Assembly (NCBI GenBank): GCA_024654525.1
Contig: JANLHI010000032.1
Coordinates: 172 to 64,171 of the forward strand
Direction of reading: 5' to 3'
DNA length: 64,000 nt
From: Patescibacteria group bacterium
GTDB lineage: Bacteria > Patescibacteriota > Minisyncoccia > UBA6257 > 2-01-FULL-56-20
A program made the position numbers and the translations under genes. A model generated the notes under the pieces. That model made no database searches. It had not been told where the DNA came from and was given only the letters and a program-made list of their open reading frames with translations. Positions 9,887 to 54,004 of the stretch are shown here, in pieces (within the stretch, counting starts at the first letter, position 1; every line of letters starts with the position of its first letter).

Positions 9887-9897
9887 GAATTAGAATA

Positions 9898-21799: not shown

Positions 21800-21804
21800 A
21801 TATC

Positions 21805-29194: not shown

Positions 29195-29250
29195 ATAATA
29201 TCATTATTGCCGAAAATTTTTGTAATATGAATTAGATTTAAATTTCTTTC

Positions 29251-29719: not shown

Positions 29720-29946
29720 AAAGTTGATTAACTACTATTTATTCATGCGCGAATCGGCAATTTTCATTGCCGATTTAATTGCCTATTTTATTTTCATTTT
29801 CTCTTTAAAATTACCGCTTTTTTGTAGAGGTATGATGTGGTGTGAAAATTTTTAATCGGGTGTTTTCTTGTGGGTAGGTGAGGGGGGCTAAATACTACGG
29901 GATTATTATTTCTTGCAACATCACCATGCGATGCTATCCTAATACA

Positions 29947-35911: not shown

Positions 35912-35965
35912 ATACTTATAGTATATACCCTTCACGCTTCGCCGATTACACCTCATACTACCTGC

Positions 35966-36799
35966 ATGCCACAACGCCTTGGACAACACTTTCTTCATGA
36001 CTCGTCAGTATTGGGAATTATTACCGATACGCTTGCTATAAATCCTCATAACACGATTATAGAAATTGGTGCCGGGCACGGAGAATTGACACAAGAATTG
36101 GAAATCAGAAATAACGCACTGGACAATTCTTTAAAAATATTTGTCATTGAAAAAGACCCCTCTCTCGTCCAACATCTTGCAGTCCTTTTTTCAAAAAACC
36201 GGAACATTGAAATTCTAGAAGGAGACGTAAGAAAAATTCTTCCGGAATTCATATCCCACCGGGGAATACATGAATATAAACTCGCAGGAAATATTCCTTA
36301 TTACCTTACCGGATTTCTTTTGCGAATAATCGGGGAATTACGACCACTTCCCAAAACCACAGTACTTACAATCCAAAAAGAAGTTGCGGAGCGTATTGCC
36401 GCAGAACCGCCTCGTATGAATCGTCTTGCGGCAAGTATACAGTTTTGGGCGACTCCTCATGTTATTTGCAATGTACCGCGCACTTCTTTTTCTCCTCCTC
36501 CCAAAGTAGACTCCTCCGTTCTCTGTCTCTCACAAAAAAATTCCCCGCAGAACGAAAACGTCACATTGCGCTATTATGCCGCAGTGCATGCTCTTTTCGC
36601 ACAACCCAGAAAAACACTCATCAACAATATCTCAAATGCAATCGACCTCCCTCGCCAATCCATTATTTCCATACTCGAAAAAGAAAGCTTAGACCCTACC
36701 GCACGTCCAGAGACTCTTACTATTTCCCAAATCATGTCACTTGCTTCGTCTTTTCACTTCCCCGATACTCCCATTCTCCGCAAGAAGAGCGCTTCTTAA
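35966..36799 (+). CDS. rsmA: 16S rRNA (adenine1518/1519-N6)-dimethyltransferase.
   Basis: 277 aa. LGQHFLHD, IIEIGAGHGELT, EKD motif. Confidence 0.9.
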   Translation: MPQRLGQHFLHDSSVLGIITDTLAINPHNTIIEIGAGHGELTQELEIRNNALDNSLKIFVIEKDPSLVQHLAVLFSKNRNIEILEGDVRKILPEFISHRGIHEYKLAGNIPYYLTGFLLRIIGELRPLPKTTVLTIQKEVAERIAAEPPRMNRLAASIQFWATPHVICNVPRTSFSPPPKVDSSVLCLSQKNSPQNENVTLRYYAAVHALFAQPRKTLINNISNAIDLPRQSIISILEKESLDPTARPETLTISQIMSLASSFHFPDTPILRKKSAS

Positions 36800-36953: not shown

Positions 36954-39809
36954 ATGATTCCCGATATAAAAAAACTTATTGCCGGATTTCTTGCGTGCTC
37001 CCTCCTTGCAACGTTATTTATTCTCATCGCCCCATCGTTCCTTTCACAAACACCCGCGTCTGTATCGCAAGAAAATAACTCCACGAATATCCAAAATGCT
37101 TTTACACCAAAGTCCGACACCATCTCTTCCGTTACGTCTGGCAATTCGGAAGAATCCGCCCAATCCCGGACACTGACTCCTTCTACCAACCTTACACAGC
37201 GCCTTGGAAATCTCCTCGCACGAGAAATAATAAACACTAACGAAGAAGCCGGAGTTCTTTCCGGTCCCCCAGAAGGTCTTGCGGTACCGAAACAGGCGGC
37301 ACTTGAAGCAACTATTAAAGATAGTTTGTCCGATGCATCATCTTTTCCATTTTCAGTGCCGGATTTCACCAGATCCATATCCGACAGCGCTCTTTCTATA
37401 ATTGAGAATCCATCCGCGGAAGATTATCAGCACTATACCGATGCTACTCAAGGAGTACTTGAAAAAACCATTTGGAGTAAAAACTTTCAAAACCTTCTCG
37501 AGGAAGAATCTCCAAGCATAGAAAGCGCATATGCGGCAACTACGGTATATGGAACCGCGTCCCGCGACCTGGCACAAATCTCCGTTCCCGCACCTCTTGT
37601 CTCGTTTCACAAAAAAATAACGACAGTAGTAATCAACCGAAAAAAACTTACTGATCTTGCACTGGATAATTTCGAGGATCCGCTCAAATCCATTGCGATT
37701 CTCAAACAACTCGACGGCCAAGTGGAGTCTATTATAGAGCAGGATCTTACCAATCTTCATAATGAGGCAGAGCGTATACGTACGTTATCACTCCACGCGC
37801 CCGTACAATCAGGCACACGCAATCTGGCGGACTATATTCTCGGCATTGATCGCGCGTTTGCACAAGGGTACGTCCCTGTTGATGCAACCGGACCGGTTTC
37901 AAAGGCATTTCAAACTCATGAGGCAAAAGCGACTACCACCACATGGCTCCGTCGCCTTTGGGAATGGGGCCAAAAAATATTCCTACAACAACTAAAAAAC
38001 CAACTCATCTCTCTTCTCGAACAGCAAATTGTAAATTGGATCAATGGGGGAGGGTCTCCACAATTTGTAACAGACTGGCAGGGATTTATTTCCACAGCGT
38101 TTAACAATGCCGCTGGTGCGGCGATTCAAGAAATTCTTCCGGGGCTTTGCCAACCCTCCTCCCCACTCCTCCGAATTTCATTGGTGCTCCCCAGCGTAAA
38201 TATACCCGTGTACAGCGGATGTACGCTCAATCAAGTGATAAGCAACGTAAAAAATTTCTATTCGAGTTTTCGCTCGGGAGGATGGGTTCAGTATGGTGTT
38301 ACGTTTGAACCCACCGGTAATTATTTCGGTGCTATTATCGAAGGACATGATCGTGTTACTCGTACCGCTCTTGCCGCCGCGGATGCCGCAAAAAACAAAG
38401 CACTTGCGGGAAGCGGATTCTTAAGTACGGAAGTATGTCCTTCAACTAATAAATCACCGGGGGCGGAAGGATGCCCTGGAGGTGAGCATCCGCTTATCCG
38501 CACACCGGGTTCGGTTCTCGGTGCCACAGTGACAAAAGCACTCGGATCAAACTTTGATCTTATTGTGAATGCAAACGATATAGGCGGACTTGTACAAACC
38601 GTCACAAATGCCGCGCTTACAAGAATCGTCACCTTGGGGCTAAGTGCAGTAAGCGGGAAACCGAGCGGATTAGGCCTTTCAAACGTTGCGTATACCAATA
38701 ATTCATCTCTCTCACAAGGACTCCAATCTGCTGAAAGTGATGCAAAAACAAAAGCGACTGTAGACCAAACTAACCAAGAATCCACTTTCGACGGACTGCA
38801 AACTTCCACTTCTCCACAAGCAGACCCGTTTGCGCAAGGAGTGGATACGGAAGAAGAAATTTCAACATCAAACAATCCCGTAAGTCTTGCAGAAAACAAG
38901 CCAGTGAGACAATCAAGCACATGGGTAAGTCGTGGCTCCGCGTCCGCAGCGGAATATGCCGTCGACGGAAGAAAAAGCAATAGTTTATATGGTTCTGCGG
39001 TAACCGACAGAGGAGGTAACAGCTGGTTAGTGGTAGATCTTCAAGAAATAGCTGTTATTGATCGCGTGGATATTCAAGAATTTCCCGGCCGACTGTTTTC
39101 GGGATGTATTATTATCTCCGCGCAAAATCCGGGATCATCCCCTTTGTCGTGCAACGGAAGCAACGGTGTGACGATTCCATTCGCGCCCACCGGCGCGGAA
39201 ACACTGGTAAGTATACCGGTGGGAAAAATCTCGGGTCGTTATGTATGGGTACAACAACAATCTTCCAAGGATAATATGATCATTTCGGAACTTGGAGTGT
39301 TTGGCGCCGGCACGGGACAAGGAAATAATTCAAGCGCCACTGCTATTTCGATGATATCTCCCGGAGGAGATGTATTATCGTGGAATCGTGGGACGACGTC
39401 TTATCCTCGACTCGACATCGTTTCATCAAAACCTGCATCGGGATTATCCCTCTCTTTTGAAATCAAGAAAGCGCCCGCATCAGGAACGGGAGTGACAAGA
39501 AAAATAACGGGAAATTACGCGGATGCTCCACTCGGAGATTTACTTGCGTCACTTAATGTCACTCTTCGTAATGCAGCAGGAACATCGTTGGTCTCCGACA
39601 CACTTAACTTTTCTATTAATCAAGGTGCAACCGTATTCTCTCCTTCTCAATCATTTTCATTACCGGCAAATACCATAAATTCACTTACCTACGATGCGAC
39701 AGTATATTCGTACGCCGGAATTAATGATTCATACCTTCTCCTCACCACCCTGCACGATGATGCCGGTGTCGTAATAAGCACCCATGCTTTCACTATCAAT
39801 GTTCATTAA
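36954..39809 (+). CDS. Large secreted surface protein with an F5/8 type C (discoidin)-like domain.
   Basis: About 951 aa from the MIPDIKKLIAGFLACSLLATLFILIAPSF signal/anchor. The listed ORF starts at 36843. Ser/Thr/Gly-rich. Discoidin-like block WVSRGSASAAEYAVDGRKSNSLYGSAVTDRGGNSWLVVDLQEIAVIDRVDI. First gene of the co-directional cluster. Confidence 0.6.
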   Translation: MIPDIKKLIAGFLACSLLATLFILIAPSFLSQTPASVSQENNSTNIQNAFTPKSDTISSVTSGNSEESAQSRTLTPSTNLTQRLGNLLAREIINTNEEAGVLSGPPEGLAVPKQAALEATIKDSLSDASSFPFSVPDFTRSISDSALSIIENPSAEDYQHYTDATQGVLEKTIWSKNFQNLLEEESPSIESAYAATTVYGTASRDLAQISVPAPLVSFHKKITTVVINRKKLTDLALDNFEDPLKSIAILKQLDGQVESIIEQDLTNLHNEAERIRTLSLHAPVQSGTRNLADYILGIDRAFAQGYVPVDATGPVSKAFQTHEAKATTTTWLRRLWEWGQKIFLQQLKNQLISLLEQQIVNWINGGGSPQFVTDWQGFISTAFNNAAGAAIQEILPGLCQPSSPLLRISLVLPSVNIPVYSGCTLNQVISNVKNFYSSFRSGGWVQYGVTFEPTGNYFGAIIEGHDRVTRTALAAADAAKNKALAGSGFLSTEVCPSTNKSPGAEGCPGGEHPLIRTPGSVLGATVTKALGSNFDLIVNANDIGGLVQTVTNAALTRIVTLGLSAVSGKPSGLGLSNVAYTNNSSLSQGLQSAESDAKTKATVDQTNQESTFDGLQTSTSPQADPFAQGVDTEEEISTSNNPVSLAENKPVRQSSTWVSRGSASAAEYAVDGRKSNSLYGSAVTDRGGNSWLVVDLQEIAVIDRVDIQEFPGRLFSGCIIISAQNPGSSPLSCNGSNGVTIPFAPTGAETLVSIPVGKISGRYVWVQQQSSKDNMIISELGVFGAGTGQGNNSSATAISMISPGGDVLSWNRGTTSYPRLDIVSSKPASGLSLSFEIKKAPASGTGVTRKITGNYADAPLGDLLASLNVTLRNAAGTSLVSDTLNFSINQGATVFSPSQSFSLPANTINSLTYDATVYSYAGINDSYLLLTTLHDDAGVVISTHAFTINVH

Positions 39810-39834
39810 CGCCTTCAGAAGGGGCGTGGGGAAA

Positions 39835-42387
39835 ATGCTCAAAACAATTTTTAAGGTTGCTGTCTTTGCAATCTCGATTGGCACACTTACCGTACCCTCG
39901 CCCGCACACGCAGGATGGCTCGACTTTGGTGCAAGTGTGATATTTGGCGCAACGGGAGGAGCTATTGCGTGGATTACTTATATCATCTCGTACATTATTA
40001 CGGCGATTGTAGGACTTTTCACCGCGCTGATAATCTATAGCATCGGTGTCGTGCTACAGCTCAATACCAATATCGTAAACGCGGTGGCAGTACAAGAAGG
40101 ATTCAAGGTAACGCTCTCCATCGCAAATCTTGGATTTGTACTCGGCATTATTATTATCGCGATTGCCACTATCATCAGATACGAACACTACGGAATAAAA
40201 CACCTTCTCGTGAAGCTTATTACCGCGGCGCTTTTGGTAAATTTCAGTTTGGTTATCGGCGGAAGCATTTTAAACTTTGCCGATCAATTGTCGAACGTAT
40301 TTCTCACCGCATTCCCCGGCGGAGGAGGGGATGAAAATGCCCTTTCAAAGTTTCATAATTTTTCAAAATCTTTTGGTGGGGCATTTTCTCCTCAACGCGC
40401 ACTCTTAAATCCAACAATTAAAGGAGCAAACAGTATGACATCCGATGACCTTCAAAGATTTCAAGGAGCGGGCTCAGTCGGGCAAAGCCTGGGAGAAGTA
40501 TTTACTCCTCTTTTGAACCTTATTTTCACCATCGTCATACTTATTTCTATCTTTATCACTGTATGCGTGTTCTTCTTTATGCTCCTCATACGATATATCT
40601 ATCTCGGCATCCTTTTTATCCTCATGCCACTCGTATGGCTTATGTGGGTATTTCCGCTCACCGAACACCTTTGGAAACAGTGGTGGGGAAAATTCCTTAA
40701 GTGGACATTTTTTGCACCCATCTCTCTATTCTTCCTATGGCTTGTGATTATCACTTCGGAAACCATGAACAGAGGAGCGGGCGACAACCCCCTGCAAGGA
40801 TTGCGAGGGCTTGGATATACCGCATCGGATTCATCTTTTGTCGCGGGACTCTCAAGTTTTGTTGGAAGTCTCGCTAATCAAGTTGTTGGTACTTTTCTTC
40901 AAATGGCGGTTCTCGTAGGACTTTCGATAGGGGGTCTTATCGCCGCGGAAAAGTTTTCAATCATGGGCTCACATGCGGCGATGGGCACAATGAAAGGATT
41001 AGGAAAGTGGGCGCAAGGATATGTCGGAAAGCGCGCAAAACAAACGGGAGGGAAAATTGCCCAAAGAATGGGCCTTGGAAATGCTGCGACTGCCCTGCAA
41101 CAAAAAGGACTTTCTTTGCCCACTAACATTGCCTCGGGTCGCGGAAGAGTATTGCGCACACTTGCTAAACCATTAAATGGTCTTGCGACTGCATTTAATT
41201 ACAGTGGAAAACTTGGAGGTCGCGCTCTTCAAGCGGGTGTTGCCGGAGGACGAAGCGGTTTGATAAGTGGTGGGGAAGCGGATGTGAAGGATGCAACAAA
41301 GGGACTCACCACCGACCAGCAGGCAAACCTTATCAGCACCATGACCGCGCCCCAACGGATTGCGCTTACTGCGAAAGCAATGAAAGAAGGGTGGCTTGAA
41401 AAAATTGACAGCAAATATTACGGCCCTGCCCAAAAAGAAATGTATAAGAGCTATGGACAGGAAAAAACGTATAACGATGTATACAAAGCAACTGCCGGAG
41501 CAGGAGAAAAGAAACATTATTTTGATGAAATTGAGAAGGGGAATAAGGATACCATCGAGCATACACGTGCAGAAGCGGAGAAGTTGAAGGAGGAAGAGAT
41601 ACGCAAGAAATCAGAAGACGCAAAGACGAAAGAAGTGGATCAGGCGTTGCGCAATACAATAGCGCCGAGCTCTCCATACGCTCAAGCTGCAGCGAAAAGA
41701 AAGTGGATAGACGAAGAAGTTAAGAAGCGACTTGCTCACACAGGACCCAACAACGAGATACGAGAGGCAGGAAATCGGGCAGTTAAAGATTCAGAGGAAG
41801 AGATAAAAAAAGCAGGAGAGAATGCAGTTGAAAGCAAGAAGAGAGGGGAAAATGTTATGGTTGATGAAATAGATTCAGAAACTGGAAAACTTACGGGTCG
41901 CAAAGTAAATGCACAAGAAAAACTAAAAGAAATTGATAGTAAGCTTGTTCCAGACTTAAAGAAAGGGGATAAAGCGCAGTATAAGGAAATATTTGGCGAT
42001 AAACCCGCATTCGGATTAAGTGCGGAGAGTGTAAAAATGATGGGGAGTGTATTTGCAGAAAAAATTGCATACTCAAACCAACAACTTGTACCGAATATTA
42101 TCTCCAAGATGAACGCGAAACAACTCCAAGGATTCTCAACGATGTACAAGAAAATCCTAAAGGATGGCAAAGATTCAACAGGTGGGGACTTGAAGAATTA
42201 TATAGAAAAAGGAGAGAAAAATTTTGAGAAAATTCTTGCGCATAACATGACAAGTCATGCGCACGAAGAGGAGGATCACGGAGGAGCACATGAAGAAGAA
42301 AATCGCGGAGGTGGCGCTTCTCACTCCCCCGCGCCGGAACCCGCTCCCGCCCCTAGTGGAGGAGGAGGTGACGCATCTCACCATTAA
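39835..42387 (+). CDS. VirB6/TrbL-like polytopic membrane protein with a roughly 450-aa charged C-terminal extension.
   Basis: Signal-like N-terminus (AVFAISIGTLTVPSPAHA). About six TM helices over the first 400 aa. Long Lys/Glu-rich tail ending HEEEDHGGAHEEENRGGGASHSPAPEPAPAPSGGGGDASHH. Strong RBS aaggggcgtgggga before ATG 39835. The listed ORF begins at 39784. Confidence 0.5.
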   Translation: MLKTIFKVAVFAISIGTLTVPSPAHAGWLDFGASVIFGATGGAIAWITYIISYIITAIVGLFTALIIYSIGVVLQLNTNIVNAVAVQEGFKVTLSIANLGFVLGIIIIAIATIIRYEHYGIKHLLVKLITAALLVNFSLVIGGSILNFADQLSNVFLTAFPGGGGDENALSKFHNFSKSFGGAFSPQRALLNPTIKGANSMTSDDLQRFQGAGSVGQSLGEVFTPLLNLIFTIVILISIFITVCVFFFMLLIRYIYLGILFILMPLVWLMWVFPLTEHLWKQWWGKFLKWTFFAPISLFFLWLVIITSETMNRGAGDNPLQGLRGLGYTASDSSFVAGLSSFVGSLANQVVGTFLQMAVLVGLSIGGLIAAEKFSIMGSHAAMGTMKGLGKWAQGYVGKRAKQTGGKIAQRMGLGNAATALQQKGLSLPTNIASGRGRVLRTLAKPLNGLATAFNYSGKLGGRALQAGVAGGRSGLISGGEADVKDATKGLTTDQQANLISTMTAPQRIALTAKAMKEGWLEKIDSKYYGPAQKEMYKSYGQEKTYNDVYKATAGAGEKKHYFDEIEKGNKDTIEHTRAEAEKLKEEEIRKKSEDAKTKEVDQALRNTIAPSSPYAQAAAKRKWIDEEVKKRLAHTGPNNEIREAGNRAVKDSEEEIKKAGENAVESKKRGENVMVDEIDSETGKLTGRKVNAQEKLKEIDSKLVPDLKKGDKAQYKEIFGDKPAFGLSAESVKMMGSVFAEKIAYSNQQLVPNIISKMNAKQLQGFSTMYKKILKDGKDSTGGDLKNYIEKGEKNFEKILAHNMTSHAHEEEDHGGAHEEENRGGGASHSPAPEPAPAPSGGGGDASHH

Positions 42388-42389
42388 CC

Positions 42390-43826
42390 ATGATGAACGC
42401 AACCATAATACCAGAACAAAAAATCTTTGAGCGTTGGGATTTACTTGCCCCGGCGCTCCGCGATGCGTTGGTGTCCGAAGAAAATTCCGATATTGTCTGG
42501 AAAACATGCACCGATGAGCATCTTTCTGAAGAGAAAATACACGAAGTCGCCCGTATTGTCTCGTGGGTGATGTTGGGATTTCTCCACCCAGAGGACATTG
42601 CACGAGAAGTGCAATTCTCGACGGGGATTCATCCGGAAGTAGCGCGAGCGATTGCATCTCCGCTCATCAAAAAAATATTCGAGCCCATGCGGGATGATCT
42701 TGAAAATATTTATGCTCCCACACCCTTAAAAGAAGGTGTTTCCGCCTCAAGCGTAATCACCGATACCGAAAGCACTCCTTTCCCGATTATTATTGATAAT
42801 GCAGAAAAAACAGAAACGGTTGATAAAACACTTGCCAACCTCGGTAAGGGAATATCAGATGAGCCATTCTTCAAAGAACCTCCCGCTCGAATGGAAAGCG
42901 CTTCCTCTGCACCGCTTCCGGAAAATCCCTTCTTCGACAATACCACCGTCGGTGAAAAACCCGTTCCTTTCCCTCCTGCATCTTCTGATGTTCCCCCTGC
43001 CTTTCATGAAGAAACATCCTCGGAGACGATGCCATTCATGATTCACGAAGAACCTTCCGCTTCTTCAATTCCTCACATCGGAGATTTTTCCTTGAATATC
43101 AAACCTGAAGAATTTGGGCCTTCACGCGAAGAATTTCAAAATATTCCAAAAGCAGACATAGAAATAGGAGGAGGAGACAACCCCGCAGTTCACCCGCAAG
43201 AAGGATTTTATTCCCCCGACGACAACCAGCCGGAGAGAATTGTGCATTACAGTGATTTTCACACACCGATTCCCGCAGAAACCGAAAAAAATACCATTAT
43301 TACACCTTTTTCATCCCTTACCAAACCCACTCCGTCATTTAAAGAAAAAAATCCAGAAGATGCTTTTCAACCGCCACCTTCTCCATCCTCAGAAACAATA
43401 ATGAATATCGGAAATTTTGGAGGAGATATTTCATCCGCTCACACGTCGATTTCTCCCGAGCCTGCGCCGCCTGTTCCCACCCCTAAAAAGAAAGGGGTAT
43501 TCGGTTCTTTTTTCGGATTGCCAAAAAGTAAAAAAAATATCGTAGTAACAGACACTGCACCAATCCCCGATATTCCTCCGTCACCTCTTTCTTTCAAAAA
43601 AATCTCTCCCGACATTCCTCCAAAACCAAAAAAAGTACTTGTTTTTGATTCTGCATCTTTTATGCAAAATGCTCCGAGAAAAGAAAATTTCTCCAGCGTC
43701 CAACCAGCCCCACCACCTGTTCCGAAAATCATCCCATCTCCCGCACCTCAAGATAAAACTTTAAGTTCTTCCGTGTTGGATATATCCTCTCTCTCCGGAG
43801 ATCTCAATAAAGAATCAACTTCTTAA
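42390..43826 (+). CDS. Hypothetical protein with a globular N-terminal domain and a long Pro/Ser-rich low-complexity C-terminus.
   Basis: 478 aa. Repeated PPSP, PPKPKK and PAPPPVP tracts. Start is 3 nt after the upstream stop. Confidence 0.5.
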   Translation: MMNATIIPEQKIFERWDLLAPALRDALVSEENSDIVWKTCTDEHLSEEKIHEVARIVSWVMLGFLHPEDIAREVQFSTGIHPEVARAIASPLIKKIFEPMRDDLENIYAPTPLKEGVSASSVITDTESTPFPIIIDNAEKTETVDKTLANLGKGISDEPFFKEPPARMESASSAPLPENPFFDNTTVGEKPVPFPPASSDVPPAFHEETSSETMPFMIHEEPSASSIPHIGDFSLNIKPEEFGPSREEFQNIPKADIEIGGGDNPAVHPQEGFYSPDDNQPERIVHYSDFHTPIPAETEKNTIITPFSSLTKPTPSFKEKNPEDAFQPPPSPSSETIMNIGNFGGDISSAHTSISPEPAPPVPTPKKKGVFGSFFGLPKSKKNIVVTDTAPIPDIPPSPLSFKKISPDIPPKPKKVLVFDSASFMQNAPRKENFSSVQPAPPPVPKIIPSPAPQDKTLSSSVLDISSLSGDLNKESTS

Positions 43827-43850
43827 TACTAATATTTTCATCTTTATTTC

Positions 43851-44351
43851 ATGCAATTCCAAGTCCCTCAATTTATTGAAACGGAAGACAAGATTGTCGG
43901 TCCTTTTACGTTGAAACAATTTATTGTGGTCGGCGTGTCTGTAGGAATATCTCTCGTACTCTACTTCATCGTCGTTCCTTGGCTGTGGATTATTCTTTCT
44001 ATTCCAATAGTGGGCGCAGGAGCTTCGCTTGCATTTATACGTGTTGGGGGAAGATCTCTCCCTGTAGTAGCCCAAGCCGCGATCCGCTATTTCTGGAAAC
44101 CTCAAACGTATGTATGGCAACCACAACAGCCTCACGCTCCTACAACTCCCTCTCCCCAAGAACACCCTTCTCATGAATCATCACTTGAAGAAATTCTTTC
44201 TGGACTCGCATTGCGTACCACATGGCAAAAGCTTCAAACCGGAAAAAAGATATCGCCCGGTACATTGCTTGGACATACGCAAGACCGATACACAATATTT
44301 CGCAAACGCACCGGAGAACGCAACGCAGCAAGAAGGATAGACTACCGATAG
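43851..44351 (+). CDS. Small two-TM membrane protein, candidate VirB3/ConD-like component.
   Basis: 166 aa. TM hairpin FIVVGVSVGISLVLYFIVVPWLWIILSIPIVGAGASLAFI. Positioned directly upstream of the VirB4-like ATPase, as in Gram-positive conjugation operons. Confidence 0.45.
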   Translation: MQFQVPQFIETEDKIVGPFTLKQFIVVGVSVGISLVLYFIVVPWLWIILSIPIVGAGASLAFIRVGGRSLPVVAQAAIRYFWKPQTYVWQPQQPHAPTTPSPQEHPSHESSLEEILSGLALRTTWQKLQTGKKISPGTLLGHTQDRYTIFRKRTGERNAARRIDYR

Positions 44352-44447
44352 TCTTTTTACCACAATGCCCCGAGGTAGCAGTTTCGTAATAAGGTACAAT
44401 TAATATGCATGGATTCGAGATAAGAACTCCGTACATTCTCTATTTTT

Positions 44448-45137
44448 ATGCCTAAAGAATTTGCAAACGCACAAACTCTTGTCGCAGTAAAAGATATACG
44501 CGACAACGTCCTTATCTTGAACGATGGCGGACTTCGCCAAATTCTCATGGTAAACGGTATTAATTTTGCGCTCCGATCCGAAGTAGAGCAAAACACTATT
44601 ACCGCCGGATATCAAAATTTCCTCAATACTCTCGACTTTCCTCTTCAAATCCTTATTCATTCGCGCAAAATTAATATTGACGAATATCTTATAAAGCTTG
44701 CCTCCCGCGAACAAGCAGAGCTTTCTCCTTTACTTCGCAGTCAAAATTCCGAGTACAGAGAATTCATCAGGGGGTTTGTGGAAAAAAATGCGATTATGGA
44801 AAAAAGTTTTTTTGTGGTGATTCCATGGTTTCCTTCTGCTATACCCACCAAGCAGACTATTATGCGCTTTATTCCGTTTTTAAAACACAGCAAGGAGGAA
44901 AACGACGCAGCTGCAACCGACAAAGAGGATTCTTTTGAGGAATCGCTGGAACAGCTCAAAGATCGCGTCGAGCAAATATCAGAAGGACTTTCTTCAATCG
45001 GGCTTGATTCGGTAATACTCGATAATAAGGCGCTCGCTGAACTTCTCTATAATTTCTACAATCCTGAATCCATTGAAAAAGAGAATATCAATCTTCCTGA
45101 TACTCAAGATGAAATGTCGCATAAAAATACACCATAG
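44448..45137 (+). CDS. N-terminal domain of the VirB4/TrbE/ConE-family ATPase, ending in a stop at an A5 run.
   Basis: 229 aa. LVAVKDIRDNVLILNDGGLRQILMVNGINFALRSEVEQNTITAGYQNFLNTLDFPLQILIHSRKINIDEYL resembles the VirB4/PrgJ N-terminal pattern. Stop TAG at 45135-45137. Confidence 0.6.
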   Translation: MPKEFANAQTLVAVKDIRDNVLILNDGGLRQILMVNGINFALRSEVEQNTITAGYQNFLNTLDFPLQILIHSRKINIDEYLIKLASREQAELSPLLRSQNSEYREFIRGFVEKNAIMEKSFFVVIPWFPSAIPTKQTIMRFIPFLKHSKEENDAAATDKEDSFEESLEQLKDRVEQISEGLSSIGLDSVILDNKALAELLYNFYNPESIEKENINLPDTQDEMSHKNTP

Positions 45138-45139
45138 CC

Positions 45140-46876
45140 ATGGAAGAATCCTCTAAACAAGAGAGTCCTTTAGGAAACATTGCTAAAGTGATTGCACCCG
45201 CAGGTGTTGAAGTAACGCCGAATCACGTAAAGATCGGGTCTAAGCTCGTTAAGACGTTTTTTATTCTTTCTTATCCACGCTATCTCGCTACGGGGTGGTT
45301 TGAACCACTGGTAAATCTCCCTAATCTTCTTGATATTTCCATCTTTGTAACACCGATGGATACCGGAAACGCACTGCGCAACCTCAGAAGAAAAGCCGCA
45401 CAGCTTGAATCTCAGATTGCCGATACGGAAGAGAAAGGCTTAGTGCGCGATCCTCTTCTCGAAACCGCGCTTCGCGATGTGGAATCGTTACGCGACACTC
45501 TCCAACAATCAGAGGAACGCCTTTTCGATACTGCGGTATATATCGCCGTATACGCCGACACAGAAGACGAACTTGCTCGCCTTGAGGGTCAAGTAACCTC
45601 GCTTATGGAATCGAAGCTTATCTATATCAAACCAGCGCTCTTCGAACAACTTGAAGGACTCATGTCTATATTTCCCTTTAACAGCGATAAATTGTCCATC
45701 ACCACATCCATGAATTCCGGCCCTATTTCTTCATTCTTTCCATTCGTATCAGAGGACCTTACTTCGAACGATGGAATTATGTATGGCATCAACCGCCACA
45801 ATAACAGTCTAGTTATATTCGACCGGTTTTCTCTAGAGAATGCAAACCAAGTCATTTTCGCCAAATCAGGATCGGGAAAATCCTATGCCACAAAACTCGA
45901 AATTGTTCGATCTCTTATGATTGGAACCGATGTTATTGTTATCGATCCCGAAAATGAGTACGAGCGCCTTGCGCATGCGCTTGGAGGAAGCTTCTTTAAC
46001 ATATCCCTTTCTTCGGAAGAACATGTGAACCCCTTCGATATTCCCATCATACCCGAGGGAGAATCTCCGTCCGACATTCTTCGCTCTCATATCGTCAACC
46101 TTTCCAGTCTTGTAAAACTCATGCTTGGAAAAATAACTCCGGAAGAAGACTCTCTCCTCGACCGCGCGATTACGGAAACATATGCATCGCGGGAAATTGT
46201 AGTGGGAGAGGATTTTTCGGGAAAAGAGCCTCCTCTTCTTGAAGATTTAGAAACCATCCTCCGTAATCTTGAAGGAGGAAGGGCGATGGCCGAACGTCTG
46301 TATAAATATACGAAAGGGTCTTTTGCCGGTTTTGTGAATCAGCACACCAACATTGATATCAATAATCGTCTTATCGTTTTTTCCATTCGAGACCTTGAAG
46401 AAGAGCTTCGTCCAATTGCTATGTTCGTCGTATTAAATTTTATCTGGAACCTTATCCGTGCAAAGTTAAAACGCAGAATTCTTATGATTGATGAAGCGTG
46501 GATTATGATGAAAAATGACGACTCCGCTACATTTCTTTTCGGTCTTGTAAAACGAGCTCGGAAATATTATTTGGGCGTTTCCACTATCACGCAAGACGTG
46601 GAGGATTTTCTTCGCTCTCCGTATGGAAGACCCATCATTACCAACTCATCAGTACAACTCTTGTTAAAACAGGCGCCTGCGACAATCGACATCGTTGCAA
46701 AAGCATTTGATCTCACCGAGGCGGAGAAGGGGATGCTTTTGGGTGCCGAAGTCGGTACCGGACTCTTTTTTGCAGGTAAAAAACATGTAGCGTTACAAAT
46801 TATTGCGTCTTACTTCGAAGATCAGATGATTACTACAAATCCGGAACAGCTTCTTGAGGAAGATAAGGCGGAATAG
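45140..46876 (+). CDS. VirB4/TrbE/TraC-family type IV secretion ATPase (ATPase domain).
   Basis: 578 aa. Walker A AKSGSGKSYATK, Walker B RILMIDEAW (the DEAW variant typical of VirB4/TraC). In a different frame from the preceding ORF. Confidence 0.8.
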   Translation: MEESSKQESPLGNIAKVIAPAGVEVTPNHVKIGSKLVKTFFILSYPRYLATGWFEPLVNLPNLLDISIFVTPMDTGNALRNLRRKAAQLESQIADTEEKGLVRDPLLETALRDVESLRDTLQQSEERLFDTAVYIAVYADTEDELARLEGQVTSLMESKLIYIKPALFEQLEGLMSIFPFNSDKLSITTSMNSGPISSFFPFVSEDLTSNDGIMYGINRHNNSLVIFDRFSLENANQVIFAKSGSGKSYATKLEIVRSLMIGTDVIVIDPENEYERLAHALGGSFFNISLSSEEHVNPFDIPIIPEGESPSDILRSHIVNLSSLVKLMLGKITPEEDSLLDRAITETYASREIVVGEDFSGKEPPLLEDLETILRNLEGGRAMAERLYKYTKGSFAGFVNQHTNIDINNRLIVFSIRDLEEELRPIAMFVVLNFIWNLIRAKLKRRILMIDEAWIMMKNDDSATFLFGLVKRARKYYLGVSTITQDVEDFLRSPYGRPIITNSSVQLLLKQAPATIDIVAKAFDLTEAEKGMLLGAEVGTGLFFAGKKHVALQIIASYFEDQMITTNPEQLLEEDKAE

Positions 46877-47601
46877 TGATTATGGAAGAACAAGGAGGAG
46901 AAAAAAAAGTAAGTCTCGTTGAGACGATATATTTACTCATTATTGTTGGCATTAACTCTGTAGTAAAAATAGTTGCCGACCTTTCTTTCGGAATTCCTAT
47001 AATAGGACAAATTTTTTTTATATTTGCGGAGTTTTTCACCGTTATAATCTGGGCATTAATTCTTTTTTTCTTTGTAATGAAGCTGGGATCGTTTGGCGCG
47101 GTGGGAATTGCACAAGTCATCGGCGGTATTCTTGATATGCTTGGAATTCCAATAGGACTCCTCATTTCCACTACTCTCGGTATCTACCTTGCAAACCACC
47201 CGAAAGTCACTGCAGTGGCGCAACTCGCAACAGCAAAAGGAGCAGTGTCTGCGGAAGGAAGGGTTGCTAAAGAAGCTACGGCAGAGGGTACTGCAGGGGA
47301 AAAGACAGCGAAAGGTACTACGGCTCGCATCTCACAATCGGGTACTGCAGAAATACAAACTCCAGAAGCGGGTACTGTACCTAATACGCCCCTTGGAGAG
47401 GAAAATGTAATTCCTCAAAAGCCCTCAATTTCAGAAGAATCATTTGGGATTGAACCAGAACCATTAGAGAAGGTGCGAAGACTTATGGAAAACCCTCTAT
47501 CCCCAGAAGAAAACAGAGATGAGGAATCACAACCCTCATCACCTCCTCCTCGCATGGTTGAAGATATACACAAAAGAGAGCTCCCGGGCGATGGGGTATA
47601 A
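46876..47601 (+). CDS. Membrane protein with an N-terminal TM bundle and a disordered acidic/Pro-rich C-terminus.
   Basis: 241 aa. GTG at 46876 overlaps the VirB4 stop; an ATG alternative is at 46882. Three to four TM helices followed by AEGTAGEKTAKGTTA low-complexity sequence. Confidence 0.45.
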   Translation: MIMEEQGGEKKVSLVETIYLLIIVGINSVVKIVADLSFGIPIIGQIFFIFAEFFTVIIWALILFFFVMKLGSFGAVGIAQVIGGILDMLGIPIGLLISTTLGIYLANHPKVTAVAQLATAKGAVSAEGRVAKEATAEGTAGEKTAKGTTARISQSGTAEIQTPEAGTVPNTPLGEENVIPQKPSISEESFGIEPEPLEKVRRLMENPLSPEENRDEESQPSSPPPRMVEDIHKRELPGDGV

Positions 47602-47614
47602 TAAAAACAAGTAG

Positions 47615-48331
47615 ATGATGTTCTATATTTTTCTTAAAAAATCGAGGTGCTTCTTGTATATACGCGTTCTTATGTTTGCACTGTTTACGGTGATATTTGG
47701 TTTTATACCTTACCACGCAATCGGACAAACCGAACCTGAAGTGATTATAAATTGGAAAGCACAAAGTTATACTCCTTCTTCATACTTTGGAAAATCATTA
47801 CCCATATCAAAAACAAGTATTGTCGCGTCCCTTGAGATTCTCCAAGGAGGAAAGTTTGTAGATATTTCGAAAGAAACGATATATTGGTATGTCGACAACC
47901 GCTTAATATTCAGCGGGAAAGGACCGCAACGCGTGTCATTCCGTGCACCGGAACAACTGCAGGGGTCGCTCTCTTTACGCGTAGAGCTACCGTCTTATAA
48001 CGGGACATCACTCATAAAAGCCGTTACTATTCCTATTGTACGTCCGGAAGTGATAATTATAGCACCCTCTCAAGAGGGGAAGATATCCCTTCCCTCCACG
48101 ACATTTACAAGCGCACCTTATTTTTTCAACATCACGAATCCCGCAGAACTCTCTTTCCAGTGGAGCATAAACGATGAACCCGCCATACCTACAGGGAACC
48201 CCACTATGCTTACCGCAACCATCGGCGGTGCAGGAGCCGTAGGATCATCTCTTCGCATCGGCCTCTCCGTAATAAATCCGGCATATGACTTTGAAACAGC
48301 GCAATCCACCATAACCATGACTATTCGATGA
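47615..48331 (+). CDS. Hypothetical secreted protein.
   Basis: 238 aa. N-terminal signal/anchor VLMFALFTVIFGFIPYHAIG, beta-rich body. Overlaps the next gene by 4 nt. Confidence 0.45.
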   Translation: MMFYIFLKKSRCFLYIRVLMFALFTVIFGFIPYHAIGQTEPEVIINWKAQSYTPSSYFGKSLPISKTSIVASLEILQGGKFVDISKETIYWYVDNRLIFSGKGPQRVSFRAPEQLQGSLSLRVELPSYNGTSLIKAVTIPIVRPEVIIIAPSQEGKISLPSTTFTSAPYFFNITNPAELSFQWSINDEPAIPTGNPTMLTATIGGAGAVGSSLRIGLSVINPAYDFETAQSTITMTIR

Positions 48332-49395
48332 AGAAAAGCCATATATTATTTTCTTTTATATTATTACTGTCACTTGCTTTCTTTTCGCACGCCTCAACCA
48401 TAAACACCACCATTCCCGGTACAAATCCCACTGCAAGCAACCCTGCGGGGTTTGTTGCAAATTTTTATCAATTTTCCCTAATGCTCGGGGGATTGCTTGC
48501 CTTCGGTGCCATTGTCTACGGCGCAATCACTTACACCATATCCGCGGGTAATCCGGAGATGCAACGCGACGGAAAAGACAGAATTACACAAGCTCTTATT
48601 GGTCTTGCTCTTCTTATGGGCGCGGTACTTATCATCAATTTTATTAATCCCGATATTATCACCCACCCTAACCGGACAACATTCATTCTTAAGGACATCA
48701 ACACGCAAGGACTTAAAGACAATACTTCTGAAAACCCCTTGCAGTACGATCCCTCTTCGGCAGTGAACTACAACGAGCTGCATGAACAAATGGTAGCGGC
48801 ACGAGAAGAATATCAAAAACTTGAAGACCAAGTTATAACCCTTCGTCAGGAAGCGGCATATTTAGAAGAAGATGCGCTGTACGACCCGGCGGCAAAGGCG
48901 CAAGTAGATGAATTTAATAGACAAGCAGATGTCCTTGAACAACAACTCACCGGAAAAAAGGCAGAAACAAATTCGACGATATATAAACTGCGAGCAGACA
49001 CCGCGGCGCTTTCCAATGATGCTGAGCAAATAAAATTTTTAAAGGAGGCGAATGATCAGCAACTTGATTCTGCAATAGCCAAGGCAAAAGCCGGAGATGA
49101 TGTGCAAACCGCCAATGCGCTAGTAATTCGACAATACACAGATGGCCTTAATCTTACACAAAAAGCTGCACTTGCGGCAATCGCCCAGACCAATAAAACA
49201 CATAGTGCGCGTGATCTTGGCGATGTATATAGCGCCATCACTAGTCTTGAAACGGGAAGCGGGAAAATAAAATTGGAAGCGCTCAAAAAAGCTCATCCTG
49301 ATAAAGCGGAAGAAATACAAAAAACAGCGGATGACACTATTAAGGCAATCCGAGCCGCATATGACGGAATTGACGTAGAGGGACTTCTTCCATAG
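48328..49395 (+). CDS. Signal-peptide protein with two hydrophobic helices (pilin/VirB2-like topology) and a C-terminal coiled-coil domain.
   Basis: 355 aa. Signal ILFSFILLLSLAFFSHAS, hydrophobic pair FSLMLGGLLAFGAIVYGAITYTI and ALIGLALLMGAVLIINFI, then an Ala/Gln/Glu/Lys-rich helical tail. Confidence 0.4.
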   Translation: MKKSHILFSFILLLSLAFFSHASTINTTIPGTNPTASNPAGFVANFYQFSLMLGGLLAFGAIVYGAITYTISAGNPEMQRDGKDRITQALIGLALLMGAVLIINFINPDIITHPNRTTFILKDINTQGLKDNTSENPLQYDPSSAVNYNELHEQMVAAREEYQKLEDQVITLRQEAAYLEEDALYDPAAKAQVDEFNRQADVLEQQLTGKKAETNSTIYKLRADTAALSNDAEQIKFLKEANDQQLDSAIAKAKAGDDVQTANALVIRQYTDGLNLTQKAALAAIAQTNKTHSARDLGDVYSAITSLETGSGKIKLEALKKAHPDKAEEIQKTADDTIKAIRAAYDGIDVEGLLP

Positions 49396-49401
49396 CACAC
49401 C

Positions 49402-50628
49402 ATGAAACGATTTCTTTATCTTATCGCCATCCTCGCCGTTATCGGTCTTATTATAGGTGCATTTTTCTTTTTCCAATATCGTAGCGATTCTCCTGTACAA
49501 GAAGAATCTTCAGAGGGCACACTTCCCGCATCAACCGAACCTATATCAATATATCCTTCGGAACAAAAAAATCCCGATGTTATTCCGGATCCGAATACCC
49601 CCATATCTCTTGGCGGAGGGCTGACCATCGCATACCCTAATCCGGTTTTTGCGTTCGCACTTGCCCCTGACGGCGACGTGATTATCATCGATCCTAAAGG
49701 AAAAGTGAGTATCCTTCCCGCGTCAGCAGGTACTGCGGCTGTTGCCGCAATCACTTTGAGTCCCACTCCCATTACCAATCTTTGGAAAGCTTCATTTTCC
49801 GCAGACGCATCGAAAATTCTCGTCCTTTTCGGAAATCCACACGCACCACAATCGGCAATATTTAATGTCGCTACAAAAACATGGCAACCTTTCCCCATCT
49901 CTATTATGGATGGCGCATGGGCACCCACGGGTCTTTCTGTCGCCTATATCACCGATAAGAATGGGATAAGCTCCCTTTCTACGTTAGATATTTCAAGTCC
50001 AAATAATAAATCACAAGAGCTTTTCAAAACTCATTTTACGGACATCTCTCTTGCATGGCCTGAATCCAATCGTATTTTTATTTATGAGCGTGCAAGCTCT
50101 CTCGTTCCTTCAAATGCGTGGAATTTCGACGTAAAGAAAAAAGGTTTATCTTCTTTTGCAATCGCACAACGCGGACTGATAACATCATGGTTTCCTTCAT
50201 CCGCCAGTGGTCTTGCATTTATCGCGGGCGATGCAGGAAAAGGGGGAAACCTGTTCCTTATTTCTCCTCAAGGTGACGTCCAGGAACGCTTCTCATTTCT
50301 TACACTTCCCAGTAAATGTTCCATTGCCCCTTCATCTGATACGCGCACTTCATCCACATCCGCGCTTTCAGATTCCTCACTGCTTATCTGCGGAATTCCA
50401 CGTAACACTTCGGCATTACAAATAACATCTCTTCCCGATGCATATTACAAAAACTCTCTCTTCACCAACGATGCGATTTATGCAATAGATCTCTCTACGG
50501 GTATTACGCGCACACTTTTTGATGACACTACAAAAAATTTCGATGCTTCATCACTCTCCTCCTCGCGCACCACTGCATATTTCATCAATCGCTACGACAA
50601 AAAACTTTATTCAATTCTTATACAATAG
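49402..50628 (+). CDS. Hypothetical membrane-anchored extracytoplasmic protein, possibly beta-propeller-like.
   Basis: 408 aa. TM anchor LYLIAILAVIGLIIGAFFFF, Ser/Thr-rich beta-strand repeats. Last gene of the co-directional block. Confidence 0.45.
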   Translation: MKRFLYLIAILAVIGLIIGAFFFFQYRSDSPVQEESSEGTLPASTEPISIYPSEQKNPDVIPDPNTPISLGGGLTIAYPNPVFAFALAPDGDVIIIDPKGKVSILPASAGTAAVAAITLSPTPITNLWKASFSADASKILVLFGNPHAPQSAIFNVATKTWQPFPISIMDGAWAPTGLSVAYITDKNGISSLSTLDISSPNNKSQELFKTHFTDISLAWPESNRIFIYERASSLVPSNAWNFDVKKKGLSSFAIAQRGLITSWFPSSASGLAFIAGDAGKGGNLFLISPQGDVQERFSFLTLPSKCSIAPSSDTRTSSTSALSDSSLLICGIPRNTSALQITSLPDAYYKNSLFTNDAIYAIDLSTGITRTLFDDTTKNFDASSLSSSRTTAYFINRYDKKLYSILIQ

Positions 50629-51046
50629 GCTTTATCACCACGCATCTCTCTTTTCCTTCTCCCACACTTTCAGTTTTTACATCAGGATGCACCGCAAGAG
50701 CCGTATGTATAATACGTCTTTCATAAGAATTCATTGCGGGTAATGCAACTTCATTTTTTGTTGTATGTACTTTTTTTGCGGCGGCTTTCGCAAGCTCCGC
50801 AATCAAATTTTCTCTCTCATGCCTGTAATTATTCACATCGAATATCACAGGCGCATCATCGTGCTTTCGAGATATGAGTTGCATCACATGATTAATACTC
50901 GACACAAGTGTCGGCAAACATTCTTTTATAAATTCAGGATTCTCATATATAAATACGCTTCCTCTTTTATCGTCCCCAACTTCCACGCGAAAATCGCGAA
51001 ATCCCATCCGTTCCAATAACTGTTGTATGAAAATTTGATAGTTCAT
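50618..51046 (-). CDS. jag: Jag/KhpB-like R3H-domain RNA-binding protein.
   Basis: 142 aa. C-terminal LPAMNSYERRIIHTALAVHPDVKTESVGEGKERCVVIKP is an R3H motif. Positioned after yidC as in the classical rnpA-yidC-jag operon. Confidence 0.8.
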   Translation of the reverse strand: MNYQIFIQQLLERMGFRDFRVEVGDDKRGSVFIYENPEFIKECLPTLVSSINHVMQLISRKHDDAPVIFDVNNYRHERENLIAELAKAAAKKVHTTKNEVALPAMNSYERRIIHTALAVHPDVKTESVGEGKERCVVIKPIV

Positions 51047-51747
51047 GAGTGGGAAAATTCCTTATTCACGATAAGTTGTTGCACTACGGAAAAAAGAGAA
51101 GAGGTAAGCCAATATAAGCTAATCGCCGCAGGGAATCCCCAAAATATGACTAACGTAAGAATTGGGGCTATAAAAACCATATTGCGACTTATTCGTTCGG
51201 CGTCAGAGAGCTTCTCTCCATCCTTTCTTTTTGGTAAAGCTAATTTACCTTGTAAATATTGGGCCGCTGCCGCAAAACACACCATGACGATACTCCGCTC
51301 CCCTAAATTAATCAAGCCGAGAAGTGTGGCGCTAAGTATTGCGGGTGCATGGACAAACGAGTAGATACCTTCAGTAATCGCCTCGGGGGCCGCGATACCG
51401 GAGAATACATGATATAGCGCAATAAGCACCGGAAGTTGGAGAAAAAGGAGAAGAATACCCGAAAAAGGATTGATTTTGTTTTCACGATACAAACCCATCA
51501 TCGCTTTCGCTTGTTGCTCTCGATCGCCGGAATGTTTCTCTTGAATTTTCTTAAGTTCAGGTTGCAAGCGCTGCATCACCGCTTGATGCCGTACGCTTTT
51601 ATGAAATACCGGAAAAAGAATCAGCCGGATAGCTATAGTGAGAAGGATGATGGCAATACCAAGATCACCGAAAGAAACACTGTTATACAGCACAATAAGG
51701 GCATTGAGGAGTGGCTGATATAAGAACGTATAGTATAAGAAATACAT
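51043..51747 (-). CDS. yidC: Membrane protein insertase YidC (short form).
   Basis: 234 aa. LGIAIILLTIAIRLILFP, MMGLYRENKINPFSGILLLFLQLPVLIAL conserved YidC/Oxa1 core. Confidence 0.88.
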   Translation of the reverse strand: MYFLYYTFLYQPLLNALIVLYNSVSFGDLGIAIILLTIAIRLILFPVFHKSVRHQAVMQRLQPELKKIQEKHSGDREQQAKAMMGLYRENKINPFSGILLLFLQLPVLIALYHVFSGIAAPEAITEGIYSFVHAPAILSATLLGLINLGERSIVMVCFAAAAQYLQGKLALPKRKDGEKLSDAERISRNMVFIAPILTLVIFWGFPAAISLYWLTSSLFSVVQQLIVNKEFSHS

Positions 51748-51748: not shown

Positions 51749-52099
51749 TTAGCGAGATACTTTCTGTTGTTCAGTGATTATATATTGAACAATAGCATGA
51801 TGCGCTTTTTCAATCTCCCCGCGAAGATTATGGTGAGAAAGAGAAACTACTGCGCGAGTAAGAATAAATACTACGTCGTAAGCCTCTTTAAATTTCCACG
51901 TACGCACCTCTCCTAGAATTTTCCTTTTTAACCCATGGCGGCGAACTGACAATGGCTCAACGGAGTTGCTAATTACAACCCCAAACATACTCTCTTTTTG
52001 TTTATTAGGGCCACCTTTTACACTAAGGTAACGACTGATATAAAGAAGCCGTGCGCGCAACGCCCTAGGGACCAGTGCGCGCATCTTCCTTGGAAGCAT
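51749..52099 (-). CDS. rnpA: Ribonuclease P protein component.
   Basis: 116 aa, basic. FGVVISNSV...RRHGLKRKILGEVR and DVVFILTRAVV...LRGEIEKA align with RnpA conserved blocks. Immediately downstream of rpmH. Confidence 0.72.
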   Translation of the reverse strand: MLPRKMRALVPRALRARLLYISRYLSVKGGPNKQKESMFGVVISNSVEPLSVRRHGLKRKILGEVRTWKFKEAYDVVFILTRAVVSLSHHNLRGEIEKAHHAIVQYIITEQQKVSR

Positions 52100-52102: not shown

Positions 52103-52237
52103 CTATACAGAAAGGCGTTTTCGCCCCTTCTGCCGCCGGCGCCGAAGCACAGATTGACCTCCGGGACGCCTTTGCCGAATCAGAAACCCGTGCGTTCGCG
52201 CTCTCTTCTTCTTTTTTGGCTGATATGTCTGCGACAT
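52103..52237 (-). CDS. rpmH: 50S ribosomal protein L34.
   Basis: Minus-strand 44-aa ORF not in the supplied track: [44 protein letters not shown]. Classic L34 sequence. Confidence 0.85.
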
Positions 52238-53863: not shown

Positions 53864-54004
53864 TCCACATGTATTCCAATTCTCTAATTCATTTTAAGCC
53901 TTATATAACATGCGTTTCTGGATTTATCCACATACCCACACCCTCTAATAACAGTAGTAACAACAATAATAAATATTAATTAATATAGAATTCTTATTAT
54001 TACT
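53861..54004. promoter_or_regulatory. Candidate oriC segment between dnaA and dnaN, with DnaA boxes and an AT-rich unwinding element.
   Basis: Perfect TTATCCACA at 53924-53932. One-mismatch tAATCCACA at 53861-53869. Pure AT run aataataaatattaattaatatagaattcttattattact at about 53960-54003. An additional TTATgCACA lies at 52297-52305 upstream of dnaA. Confidence 0.5.

Follow-up and report, generated by a model that had tools for sequence, protein, structure and literature searches.

What a chromosomal cluster of type IV secretion system (T4SS) genes does when neither a relaxase nor a coupling protein lies nearby is the question raised by positions 36954-50628 of a 64,000-nucleotide stretch of contig JANLHI010000032.1 (assembly GCA_024654525.1), referred to here as the window. 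Judging from its sequences, the genome is a metagenome-assembled genome of Paceibacteria/Parcubacteria near Ca. Liptonbacteria; proteins of the window deposited in NCBI include MCR4328759.1 and MCR4328754.1. The locus very probably represents a chromosomal, vertically inherited T4SS of the Patescibacteria that descended from monoderm (MPF-FATA) conjugation machinery and has no relaxase or coupling protein nearby, and by analogy its role is most likely that of a non-conjugative, pilus-forming conduit at host contact. An earlier reading of the bare letters (the sequence-only reading) had proposed a chromosomal, non-conjugative apparatus of an ultrasmall, host-dependent bacterium, and this proposal was borne out by the components of the module, the missing conjugation genes, the uniform composition and the synteny of the region.

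Core and partner genes of the module

Ten co-directional, tightly packed open reading frames (ORFs), termed g1 to g10, were found on the + strand between 36954 and 50628 (lengths in amino acids, aa; TM, transmembrane):

g1, 36954..39809, + strand: 951-aa surface protein with an N-terminal TM anchor, a helical region, a Cys-containing central domain and a C-terminal discoidin-like module
g2, 39784..42387, + strand: VirB6/TrbL-like polytopic membrane protein (~420 aa) with a charged tail of ~450 aa
g3, 42390..43826, + strand: 478-aa protein with no predicted TM helix, probably cytoplasmic, with a helical N-domain and a Pro-rich remainder
g4, 43851..44351, + strand: VirB3-like PrgI-family protein with two TM helices (PF12666)
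g5, 44448..45137, + strand: VirB4 N-terminal domain as a gene of its own, TrsD-like
g6, 45140..46876, + strand: VirB4 ATPase, middle and C-terminal P-loop domains (NF045971, PF19044)
g7, 46876..47601, + strand: small membrane protein with about three TM helices and a disordered acidic/Pro-rich tail
g8, 47615..48331, + strand: 238-aa exported or anchored, beta-rich protein, probably with two immunoglobulin (Ig)-like domains
g9, 48328..49395, + strand: VirB2-like T4SS pilin with a signal peptide, two TM helices and a 243-aa charged helical C-terminal extension
g10, 49402..50628, + strand: N-terminally anchored TolB-like beta-propeller with an invariant Cys pair

Eleven co-directional genes had been counted in the sequence-only reading, but no eleventh non-overlapping ORF that fits beside these ten was found when searched for. 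The junctions from g1 to g10 comprise, in order, a 26-nt overlap, gaps of 2, 24, 96 and 2 nt, a 1-nt overlap, a 13-nt gap, a 4-nt overlap and a 6-nt gap, the first of these applying if g2 starts at 39784 (with the second ATG at 39835, a gap of ~25 nt results). An alternative upstream start is available to g1 at a GTG at position 36843. A scan for promoters and terminators gave no enrichment over shuffled sequence. The core of the module consists of VirB6 (g2), VirB3/PrgI (g4), a two-piece VirB4 (g5 and g6) and a VirB2-like pilin (g9).

Related loci were collected by scanning one genome per GTDB species. Relatives were encoded in 512 stretches, of which the best 80, with VirB4 identities of 54-87%, were kept; these span Lipton-, Harrison-, Wolfe-, Jorgensen-, Colwell-, Zambryski- and Nomurabacteria. 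Several third-party-annotation (TPA) assemblies among them carry the label 'Saccharibacteria', which was treated as generic, as synteny and VirB4 identity group them with Paceibacteria.

The identification of 45140..46876 (g6) as a member of the VirB4 family was confirmed by a score of 384.8 bits (cutoff 325) against NCBIfam NF045971, the VirB4-like CD1110 family, by a match to Pfam P-loop_TraG PF19044 (3e-27) and by the Walker A (GSGKS) and Walker B (IDEAW) motifs of its translation; the protein is 28% identical to PrgJ of pCF10. VirB4 is, however, not the single gene as which it had been described, its N-terminal domain being encoded separately by g5 (44448-45137), which had been passed over. 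This protein matches NCBIfam VirB4_plasma (2e-9), aligns to positions 18-179 of the TIGR00929 model and gives E 4.6e-6 (26.6 bits, far under the family cutoff of 200) against TrsD NF041427. In a fused 793-aa VirB4 relative (P0021), g5 corresponds to residues 1-217 (56% identity) and g6 to residues 222-791 (80% identity), and the stop codon of g5 (TAG, 45135-45137) is followed by the start codon of g6 (ATG) at 45140.

Among the related loci, virB4 is split in 62 and fused in five (L017, L029, L030, L043 and L044; ~780-795 aa). A frameshift or pseudogene was considered for the split and rejected, as the split is kept in 62 loci with varied spacing and reading frames and with both halves conserved; the sequences point to an ancestral arrangement. 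Two of the loci with a fused gene, L029 and L044 from Colwellbacteria, represent a reduced module without detectable g1, g8 and g10; the same three genes were not detected in L043, whose contig ends ~0.7 kb past virB4. A wider search with VirB4 returned at least 8000 matches at E<=1e-10. The best 120 of these were 76-100% identical, and all source names among them were Patescibacteria, Paceibacterota, Parcubacteria, Liptonbacteria or Minisyncoccia. By these comparisons, the VirB4 protein is of the monoderm (CD1110/MPF-FATA) type, with its closest relatives in Patescibacteria.

The assignment of g2 to VirB6 needed testing, because g2 itself has no Pfam match. Homologues at 35-50% identity matched TrbL/VirB6 (2/42) and TrbL_4 (2/42), and in a wider set TrbL was matched by 4 of 64 sequences (best 4e-6) and TrbL_4 by one of the 64; many g2 homologues additionally carry a precomputed match to PF19590. 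When the orthologue sets of g1, g2 and g3 were scanned against Pfam, an informative family (TrbL) was obtained for g2 alone. The first 440 residues were modelled with AlphaFold2 on the basis of 64 sequences; the model was confident (predicted local distance difference test, pLDDT, 80; predicted TM-score, pTM, 0.71), and its best fold matches were TrwI/VirB6 of R388 and DotA of Legionella, with sequence identities of 10-16%. The protein was accepted as a predicted extended VirB6, whose charged tail of ~450 aa resembles that of other proteins of this kind; no VirB5 partner was recognised.

The VirB3-like protein g4 scored above the gathering threshold of PrgI PF12666 (32.3 bits, cutoff 27), a TM hairpin was mapped in it, and the gene is present in 78 of the 80 loci. 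The pilin g9 likewise exceeded the gathering threshold of T4SS_pilin PF18895 (36 bits, cutoff 26.6) and matched the Mycoplasma integrative and conjugative element (ICE) pilin-like family NF045849 weakly. Its orthologues (L001-L078) have C-terminal tails of 9-370 aa and, in some cases, N-terminal inserts. The VirB6/TrbL-like architecture of g2, the two-TM VirB3-like nature of g4 and the pilin-like nature of g9, with its signal peptide and two helices, had all been proposed beforehand and held.

The remaining five genes, g1, g3, g7, g8 and g10, are lineage-specific partners of this core. In agreement with the previous description, g1 encodes a surface protein of about 950 aa (951 aa), whereas the discoidin domain ascribed to it remained below the gathering score (F5/8 type C, 24.5 bits, cutoff 28.2, E 3e-5); among orthologues, the C-terminus varies between PKD, BNR and discoidin modules. 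The central domain of g1 (about aa 330-570, window 37941-38753) comprises ~240 aa, contains Cys and bears the motif WINGGGxPQFVTDWxGF. No match to it was found in Pfam or the PDB, and it matched 2825 cluster representatives (50% identity clusters) at E<=1e-3, 1541 of them at E<=1e-10, in which it is located either near the N-terminus of ~480-aa proteins or behind a 300-aa leader in proteins of 650-1160 aa. It thus defines a large uncharacterised family, which, judging by its sequence, may be a new domain family associated with T4SSs. An AlphaFold2 model of g1 (15-sequence alignment) was poor (pLDDT 43), and a Foldseek search with it gave noise.

A profile made from 33 orthologues of g10 matched TolB propellers in the PDB (7mx5_A, E 5.9e-11), so that the anchored, propeller-like protein described earlier is upheld; the accompanying statement that the accessory genes have no recognisable family applies to most of them, but not to g10. 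Residues K305, C306 and C330 are invariant among its orthologues, and the conserved cysteines suggest disulfides. In g3, a conserved helical N-terminal domain of ~95 aa is followed by a Pro-rich, probably disordered remainder, and neither PDB nor Pfam searches gave a match. The tail of g7 is variable, and the g7 profile had no match among PDB sequences; an ORF of g7-like topology directly follows virB4 in most loci. For g8, profile comparison with the PDB gave sub-threshold similarity to Ig constant domains only (E 0.03), and no VirB8 match was obtained there, so that g8 is not recognisable as VirB8 from its sequence profile; a sequence comparison with PrgL in a 16-protein database gave E 0.044. 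When profile hidden Markov models (HMMs) of the accessory genes were compared with the Prg/Pcf proteins of pCF10, nothing credible was obtained past VirB4.

Position, inheritance and published relatives

The module is bounded upstream by ksgA and followed downstream by genes of the replication origin region:

ksgA/rsmA, 35966..36799, + strand: conserved upstream boundary gene of the module (PF00398, 1e-41)
jag, 50618-51046, - strand: downstream neighbour
yidC, 51043-51747, - strand: downstream neighbour
rnpA, 51749-52099, - strand: downstream neighbour
rpmH, 52103-52237, - strand: downstream neighbour
dnaA, 52505-53863, + strand: downstream neighbour
DnaA-box cluster, 53797-53932: one perfect and two near-perfect boxes
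dnaN, 54005-55114, + strand: downstream neighbour

The cumulative GC-skew minimum is located near 53 kb of the window. The neighbours rpmH-rnpA-yidC-jag/dnaA are thus those named in the sequence-only reading, which had considered this placement unusual. Comparison with the related loci contradicts the latter view: the order and orientation ksgA, module, jag-yidC-rnpA, dnaA-dnaN and a penicillin-binding protein gene recur in nearly all 80 loci, ksgA being found upstream of the module in 53 of them, and of the 60 loci extending 7.5 kb or more beyond virB4, 52 have dnaA at 2.0-7.4 kb past this gene, a placement that is the published norm for Paceibacteria (PMC12102498). The exceptions include several Wolfebacteria. 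In L022, L031, L034, L036, L037, L068 and L073, several of them Wolfebacteria, the module is intact, but the 10 kb downstream contain no dnaA; some lineages have thus either given up the site beside the origin or never had it.

Gene content was counted by profile in those 48 loci whose flanking sequence is sufficiently long on either side. There, g1 was detected in 37, g2 in 47, g3 in 44, g4 in 44, g5 in 47, g7 in 38, g8 in 43, g9 in 37 and g10 in 42, counts that are partly circular for the loci that fed the profiles. Each gene family was always found on the same side and strand of virB4, with g3 upstream (44/48) and g8 downstream (43/48) in the loci detected by profile. VirB4 is more conserved than DnaA throughout (86% versus 83% identity in the nearest relative and ~55% versus ~41% in distant ones), and divergence is fastest among the surface components, which are 39-51% identical in the nearest relative. 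The GC content of the module (0.43-0.47) is like that of the rest of the window, with no compositional anomaly. Because gene order recurs across the class, side and strand are fixed, GC content is uniform and VirB4 is more conserved than DnaA, the locus is regarded as a vertically inherited core chromosomal module and no mobile element.

Genes required for conjugation were sought in the window and beyond. Among the window ORFs of 150 aa or longer, none matched the VirD4/type IV coupling protein (T4CP), relaxase or integrase families. Searches with PcfC (coupling protein) and PcfG (relaxase) of pCF10 by tblastn were empty in the window, and at E<0.01 none of the 80 related loci gave a match 10 kb or less from virB4, so that the negative result for the coupling protein covers the 64-kb window and 10 kb around virB4 in these loci; the relaxase search consisted of Pfam families and PcfG tblastn, without MOB-specific HMMs. 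VirB9 and VirB10 families had no matches among the module ORFs. The earlier statement that VirD4, relaxase, integrase and VirB11 are missing from the window was reproduced for the first three and corrected for the last, given that 59296-60972 encodes a 558-aa PilB-type T2SSE ATPase, a member of the superfamily to which VirB11 also belongs. With this length, it resembles a type IV pilus ATPase more than VirB11. The gene is situated between a YebC-family gene and ruvB, and its surroundings in the window contain no other recognisable pilus genes. An M23/LysM peptidase is encoded 4 kb upstream of the module on the opposite strand.

These features agree closely with published accounts. For 3035 Patescibacteria genomes, a published survey described a VirB4 clade that is monophyletic and lies within MPF-FATA (Quinonero-Coronel et al. 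2025, Microb Genom 11:001409, PMC12102498). It also recorded PrgI/VirB3, VirB6, many separately encoded TrsD homologues and VirB2-like pilins, PF18895 among them. Relaxases were almost absent, VirD4 homologues were present in 2918 of the 3035 genomes, mostly far from virB4, and in Paceibacteria and Microgenomatia virB4 was close to dnaA, dnaN, rnpA, ksgA and rpmH; in the class ABY1, T4SS genes instead co-localise with comF, recG and radA (PMC12102498). A gene-dosage benefit and the import of DNA or other macromolecules were proposed by the authors (PMC12102498). The present locus shares the MPF-FATA VirB4, the separate TrsD-like gene, PrgI/VirB3, VirB6, the PF18895 pilin, the lack of a relaxase or T4CP near virB4 and the neighbours dnaA, dnaN, rnpA, ksgA and rpmH with this clade, from which it differs in nothing essential (PMC12102498).

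As an observation on orientation, the whole 13.7-kb module is transcribed towards the origin (oriC at ~52-54 kb) and thus head-on to the leftward replication fork, and its orientation relative to dnaA is identical in all 52 loci that include dnaA; the published gene-dosage idea apparently leaves orientation unaddressed.

The only experimentally tested relative is the T4SS of Southlakia epibionticum ML1 (SEML1_0006-0019), which, unlike the locus described here, belongs to the class Saccharimonadia. It was found to be essential for epibiotic growth by transposon sequencing (Tn-seq), with pilins present and coupling and relaxase proteins unrecognisable (Wang et al. 2023, Cell, PMC10633639). Both systems are of the monoderm type and have pilins without recognisable coupling or relaxase proteins, and the low locus-tag numbers in Southlakia suggest a position at the chromosome start there as well. 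However, Southlakia carries an array of six divergent pilins instead of one long-tailed pilin, and the peptidase and lysozyme genes directly downstream of its virB4 were not seen here. A 2026 preprint describes tubular structures at the parasite-host interface, feeding on host RNA and monophyly of VirB4 in the phylum.

Further likenesses extend to systems outside the phylum. With MPF-FATA conjugation systems (pCF10 Prg/Pcf; Clostridioides CTn CD1110), the module shares the VirB4 family, PrgI and the order VirB6-VirB3-VirB4. It differs in that no PcfC-type T4CP, PcfG-type relaxase, PrgK hydrolase, recognisable PrgL/VirB8 or PrgB adhesin was found, that a VirB2-like pilin is present and that the locus is chromosomal and vertically inherited. 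As in TrsD/TrsE of the staphylococcal plasmids pGO1/pSK41, the VirB4-like N-domain is a separate small protein beside the ATPase, although the pGO1 subclass is devoid of VirB6 (PMC12102498), which is present here. Similar to Helicobacter pylori ComB and crenarchaeal Ced, which move nucleic acid inward, the module combines a VirB4-type ATPase with the lack of a relaxase or nearby coupling protein; in contrast to them, ComB outer-membrane components are absent and CedB is matched with 44 bits only, against a cutoff of 700.

The system, the split VirB4, the pilins, the absence of relaxases and the proximity to dnaA had therefore already been published between 2023 and 2025, and the locus is a typical member of the group. 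A machine of this kind belongs to the chromosomes of most of the ultrasmall, host-dependent Patescibacteria, in many lineages beside the replication origin. The present analysis adds the ten-gene order in Paceibacteria, the TolB-like g10, the fold evidence for VirB6 and the large domain family of g1.

Proposed role and rival explanations

By analogy with known systems, VirB4, held at the membrane by VirB3 and VirB6, would power the extraction and polymerisation of the pilin, which could then form a tube or short conduit across the wall. The proteins g8, with its N-terminal signal or anchor, and g10 would provide an extracytoplasmic scaffold for passage through the envelope, and g1 would bind host surface glycans on the outside by means of its swappable modules. 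The apparatus would move macromolecules at the contact with the host cell, and its site a few kb from oriC may ensure a high gene dosage. Import of host-derived macromolecules such as nucleic acids is tentatively favoured over the export of effectors. Held with more reserve is a specific form of this idea, in which the T4SS runs in reverse without a locus-encoded coupling protein and pulls host nucleic acids or other macromolecules into the epibiont, like a feeding tube. Docking onto a particular host might then fall to the pilin and the surface set of g1, g8 and g10, and the host range might be determined by the interchangeable lectin-like tips of g1. The feeding-tube idea is already present in the literature as a hypothesis (PMC12102498; 2026 preprint).

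Several points weigh against this assignment. The roles proposed for g1, g3, g7, g8 and g10 derive only from synteny, topology and the types of domain. Sequence matching revealed nothing like VirB8 or VirB1 within the module, another part of the genome may encode a VirD4-like protein, and a canonical VirB2 pilus may not accommodate the 243-aa tail of the g9 pilin. Essentiality, finally, was established in a different class (Saccharimonadia).

Export of effector proteins or toxins into the host cell, as by the T4SSs of pathogens, is rather unlikely, even though protein export was considered for Southlakia, whose coupling and relaxase proteins are unrecognisable (Wang et al. 2023, PMC10633639), and exporters without a T4CP exist in the form of Bordetella Ptl and Brucella VirB (PMC12102498, PMC12857230). 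A pilin and adhesin-like surface proteins would suit such a function. However, family searches revealed no candidate effector, chaperone or protein with a recognisable secretion signal in the module, the T4CP that serves as substrate receptor in most exporters is not found nearby, and the chief deficit of the organism is biosynthetic, which favours acquisition. A machine mainly for DNA uptake (competence) of the ComB/Ced kind, feeding ComEC and recombination, would also account for the finding of neither T4CP nor relaxase nearby; neither is known to lie near the H. pylori ComB system. The weak similarity to CedB, the presence of comM and uvrD a few kb upstream, syntenic in several loci, and the co-localisation of T4SS genes with comF, recG and radA in ABY1 (PMC12102498) point in the same direction. 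This explanation is nevertheless improbable, as the CedB score is far below its cutoff and VirB7, VirB9 and VirB10, which belong to the diderm ComB system, are absent. Moreover, deletion of comEC in Southlakia ends competence but not viability, and the T4SS is essential there independently of ComEC (2025 review, PMC12857230), so that the essential role of the T4SS is not ComEC-linked transformation.

The role of VirB4 in pilus biogenesis is known, and a pilin with a long exposed extension next to a surface protein with variable lectin-like modules could form an adhesive pilus or surface fibre through which no substrate passes. Such a purely adhesive function is distinctly improbable, given that the channel components VirB6 and VirB3 are strongly conserved and that a type IV pilus ATPase of the PilB type is encoded in the genome as well, type IV pili having been implicated in the adhesion of Saccharibacteria (PMC12102498, PMC12857230, PMC10633639). 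Finally, the homology of VirB4, PrgI and VirB6 to monoderm conjugative elements such as pCF10, their similar order and the stop codon that interrupts virB4 could be read as signs of an ICE, either still active or left as a remnant with a decaying virB4. The chance of this being correct is extremely small: the module occupies the same chromosomal position across the class, the window shows no compositional shift and no integrase, relaxase or T4CP was found in it, and the split is ancestral, kept in 62 loci with varied spacing and frames and strong conservation of both halves.

Elsewhere in the window, and significance

An AT-rich non-coding region (29240-29725, GC content ~0.38) is located upstream of a DksA/TraR-type zinc-finger ORF and comM. 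The region carries TCTGACAAACAnTTTTGTTTGTCAGA twice and the 16-bp palindrome TGTTTGTCGACAAACA seven times, four of these copies being perfect and three near-perfect; a perfect DnaA box at 29668 borders directly on the last copy. In the window as a whole, TGTTTGTCGACAAACA has eight matches with at most three mismatches (0.34 expected), the only one outside this region being at 33840-33855 (three mismatches). The outer arms recall parS, and the array, ~23 kb from dnaA, may be a centromere-like or operator array. No exact copy was found in the 80 related loci, which mostly end short of that upstream distance.

Between uvrD and ksgA, a 412-aa ORF without a family match is encoded on the - strand (34760-35998). 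Among the relatives, it could be detected in the closest one (L001) only, whereas uvrD abuts ksgA in other loci. At 9808-12285, a single 825-aa ORF fuses both domains of glucose-6-phosphate dehydrogenase with those of 6-phosphogluconate dehydrogenase. A tRNA-Ile with the anticodon UAU was predicted by ARAGORN at 21724-21800 (- strand); most bacteria decode AUA with a lysidine-modified CAU tRNA.

Much of bacterial diversity belongs to the Patescibacteria, whose way of living at the expense of their hosts is still to be explained, and their T4SS is the leading candidate for a physical link to the host cell. The locus described here does not bring a new kind of system but provides a clean and complete example of the version found in Paceibacteria. 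For structural and genetic work, it supplies a defined list of conserved partners, comprising a TolB-like propeller, an Ig-like protein, a three-TM protein, a Pro-rich soluble protein and g1, whose domain family encompasses ~2800 clusters.

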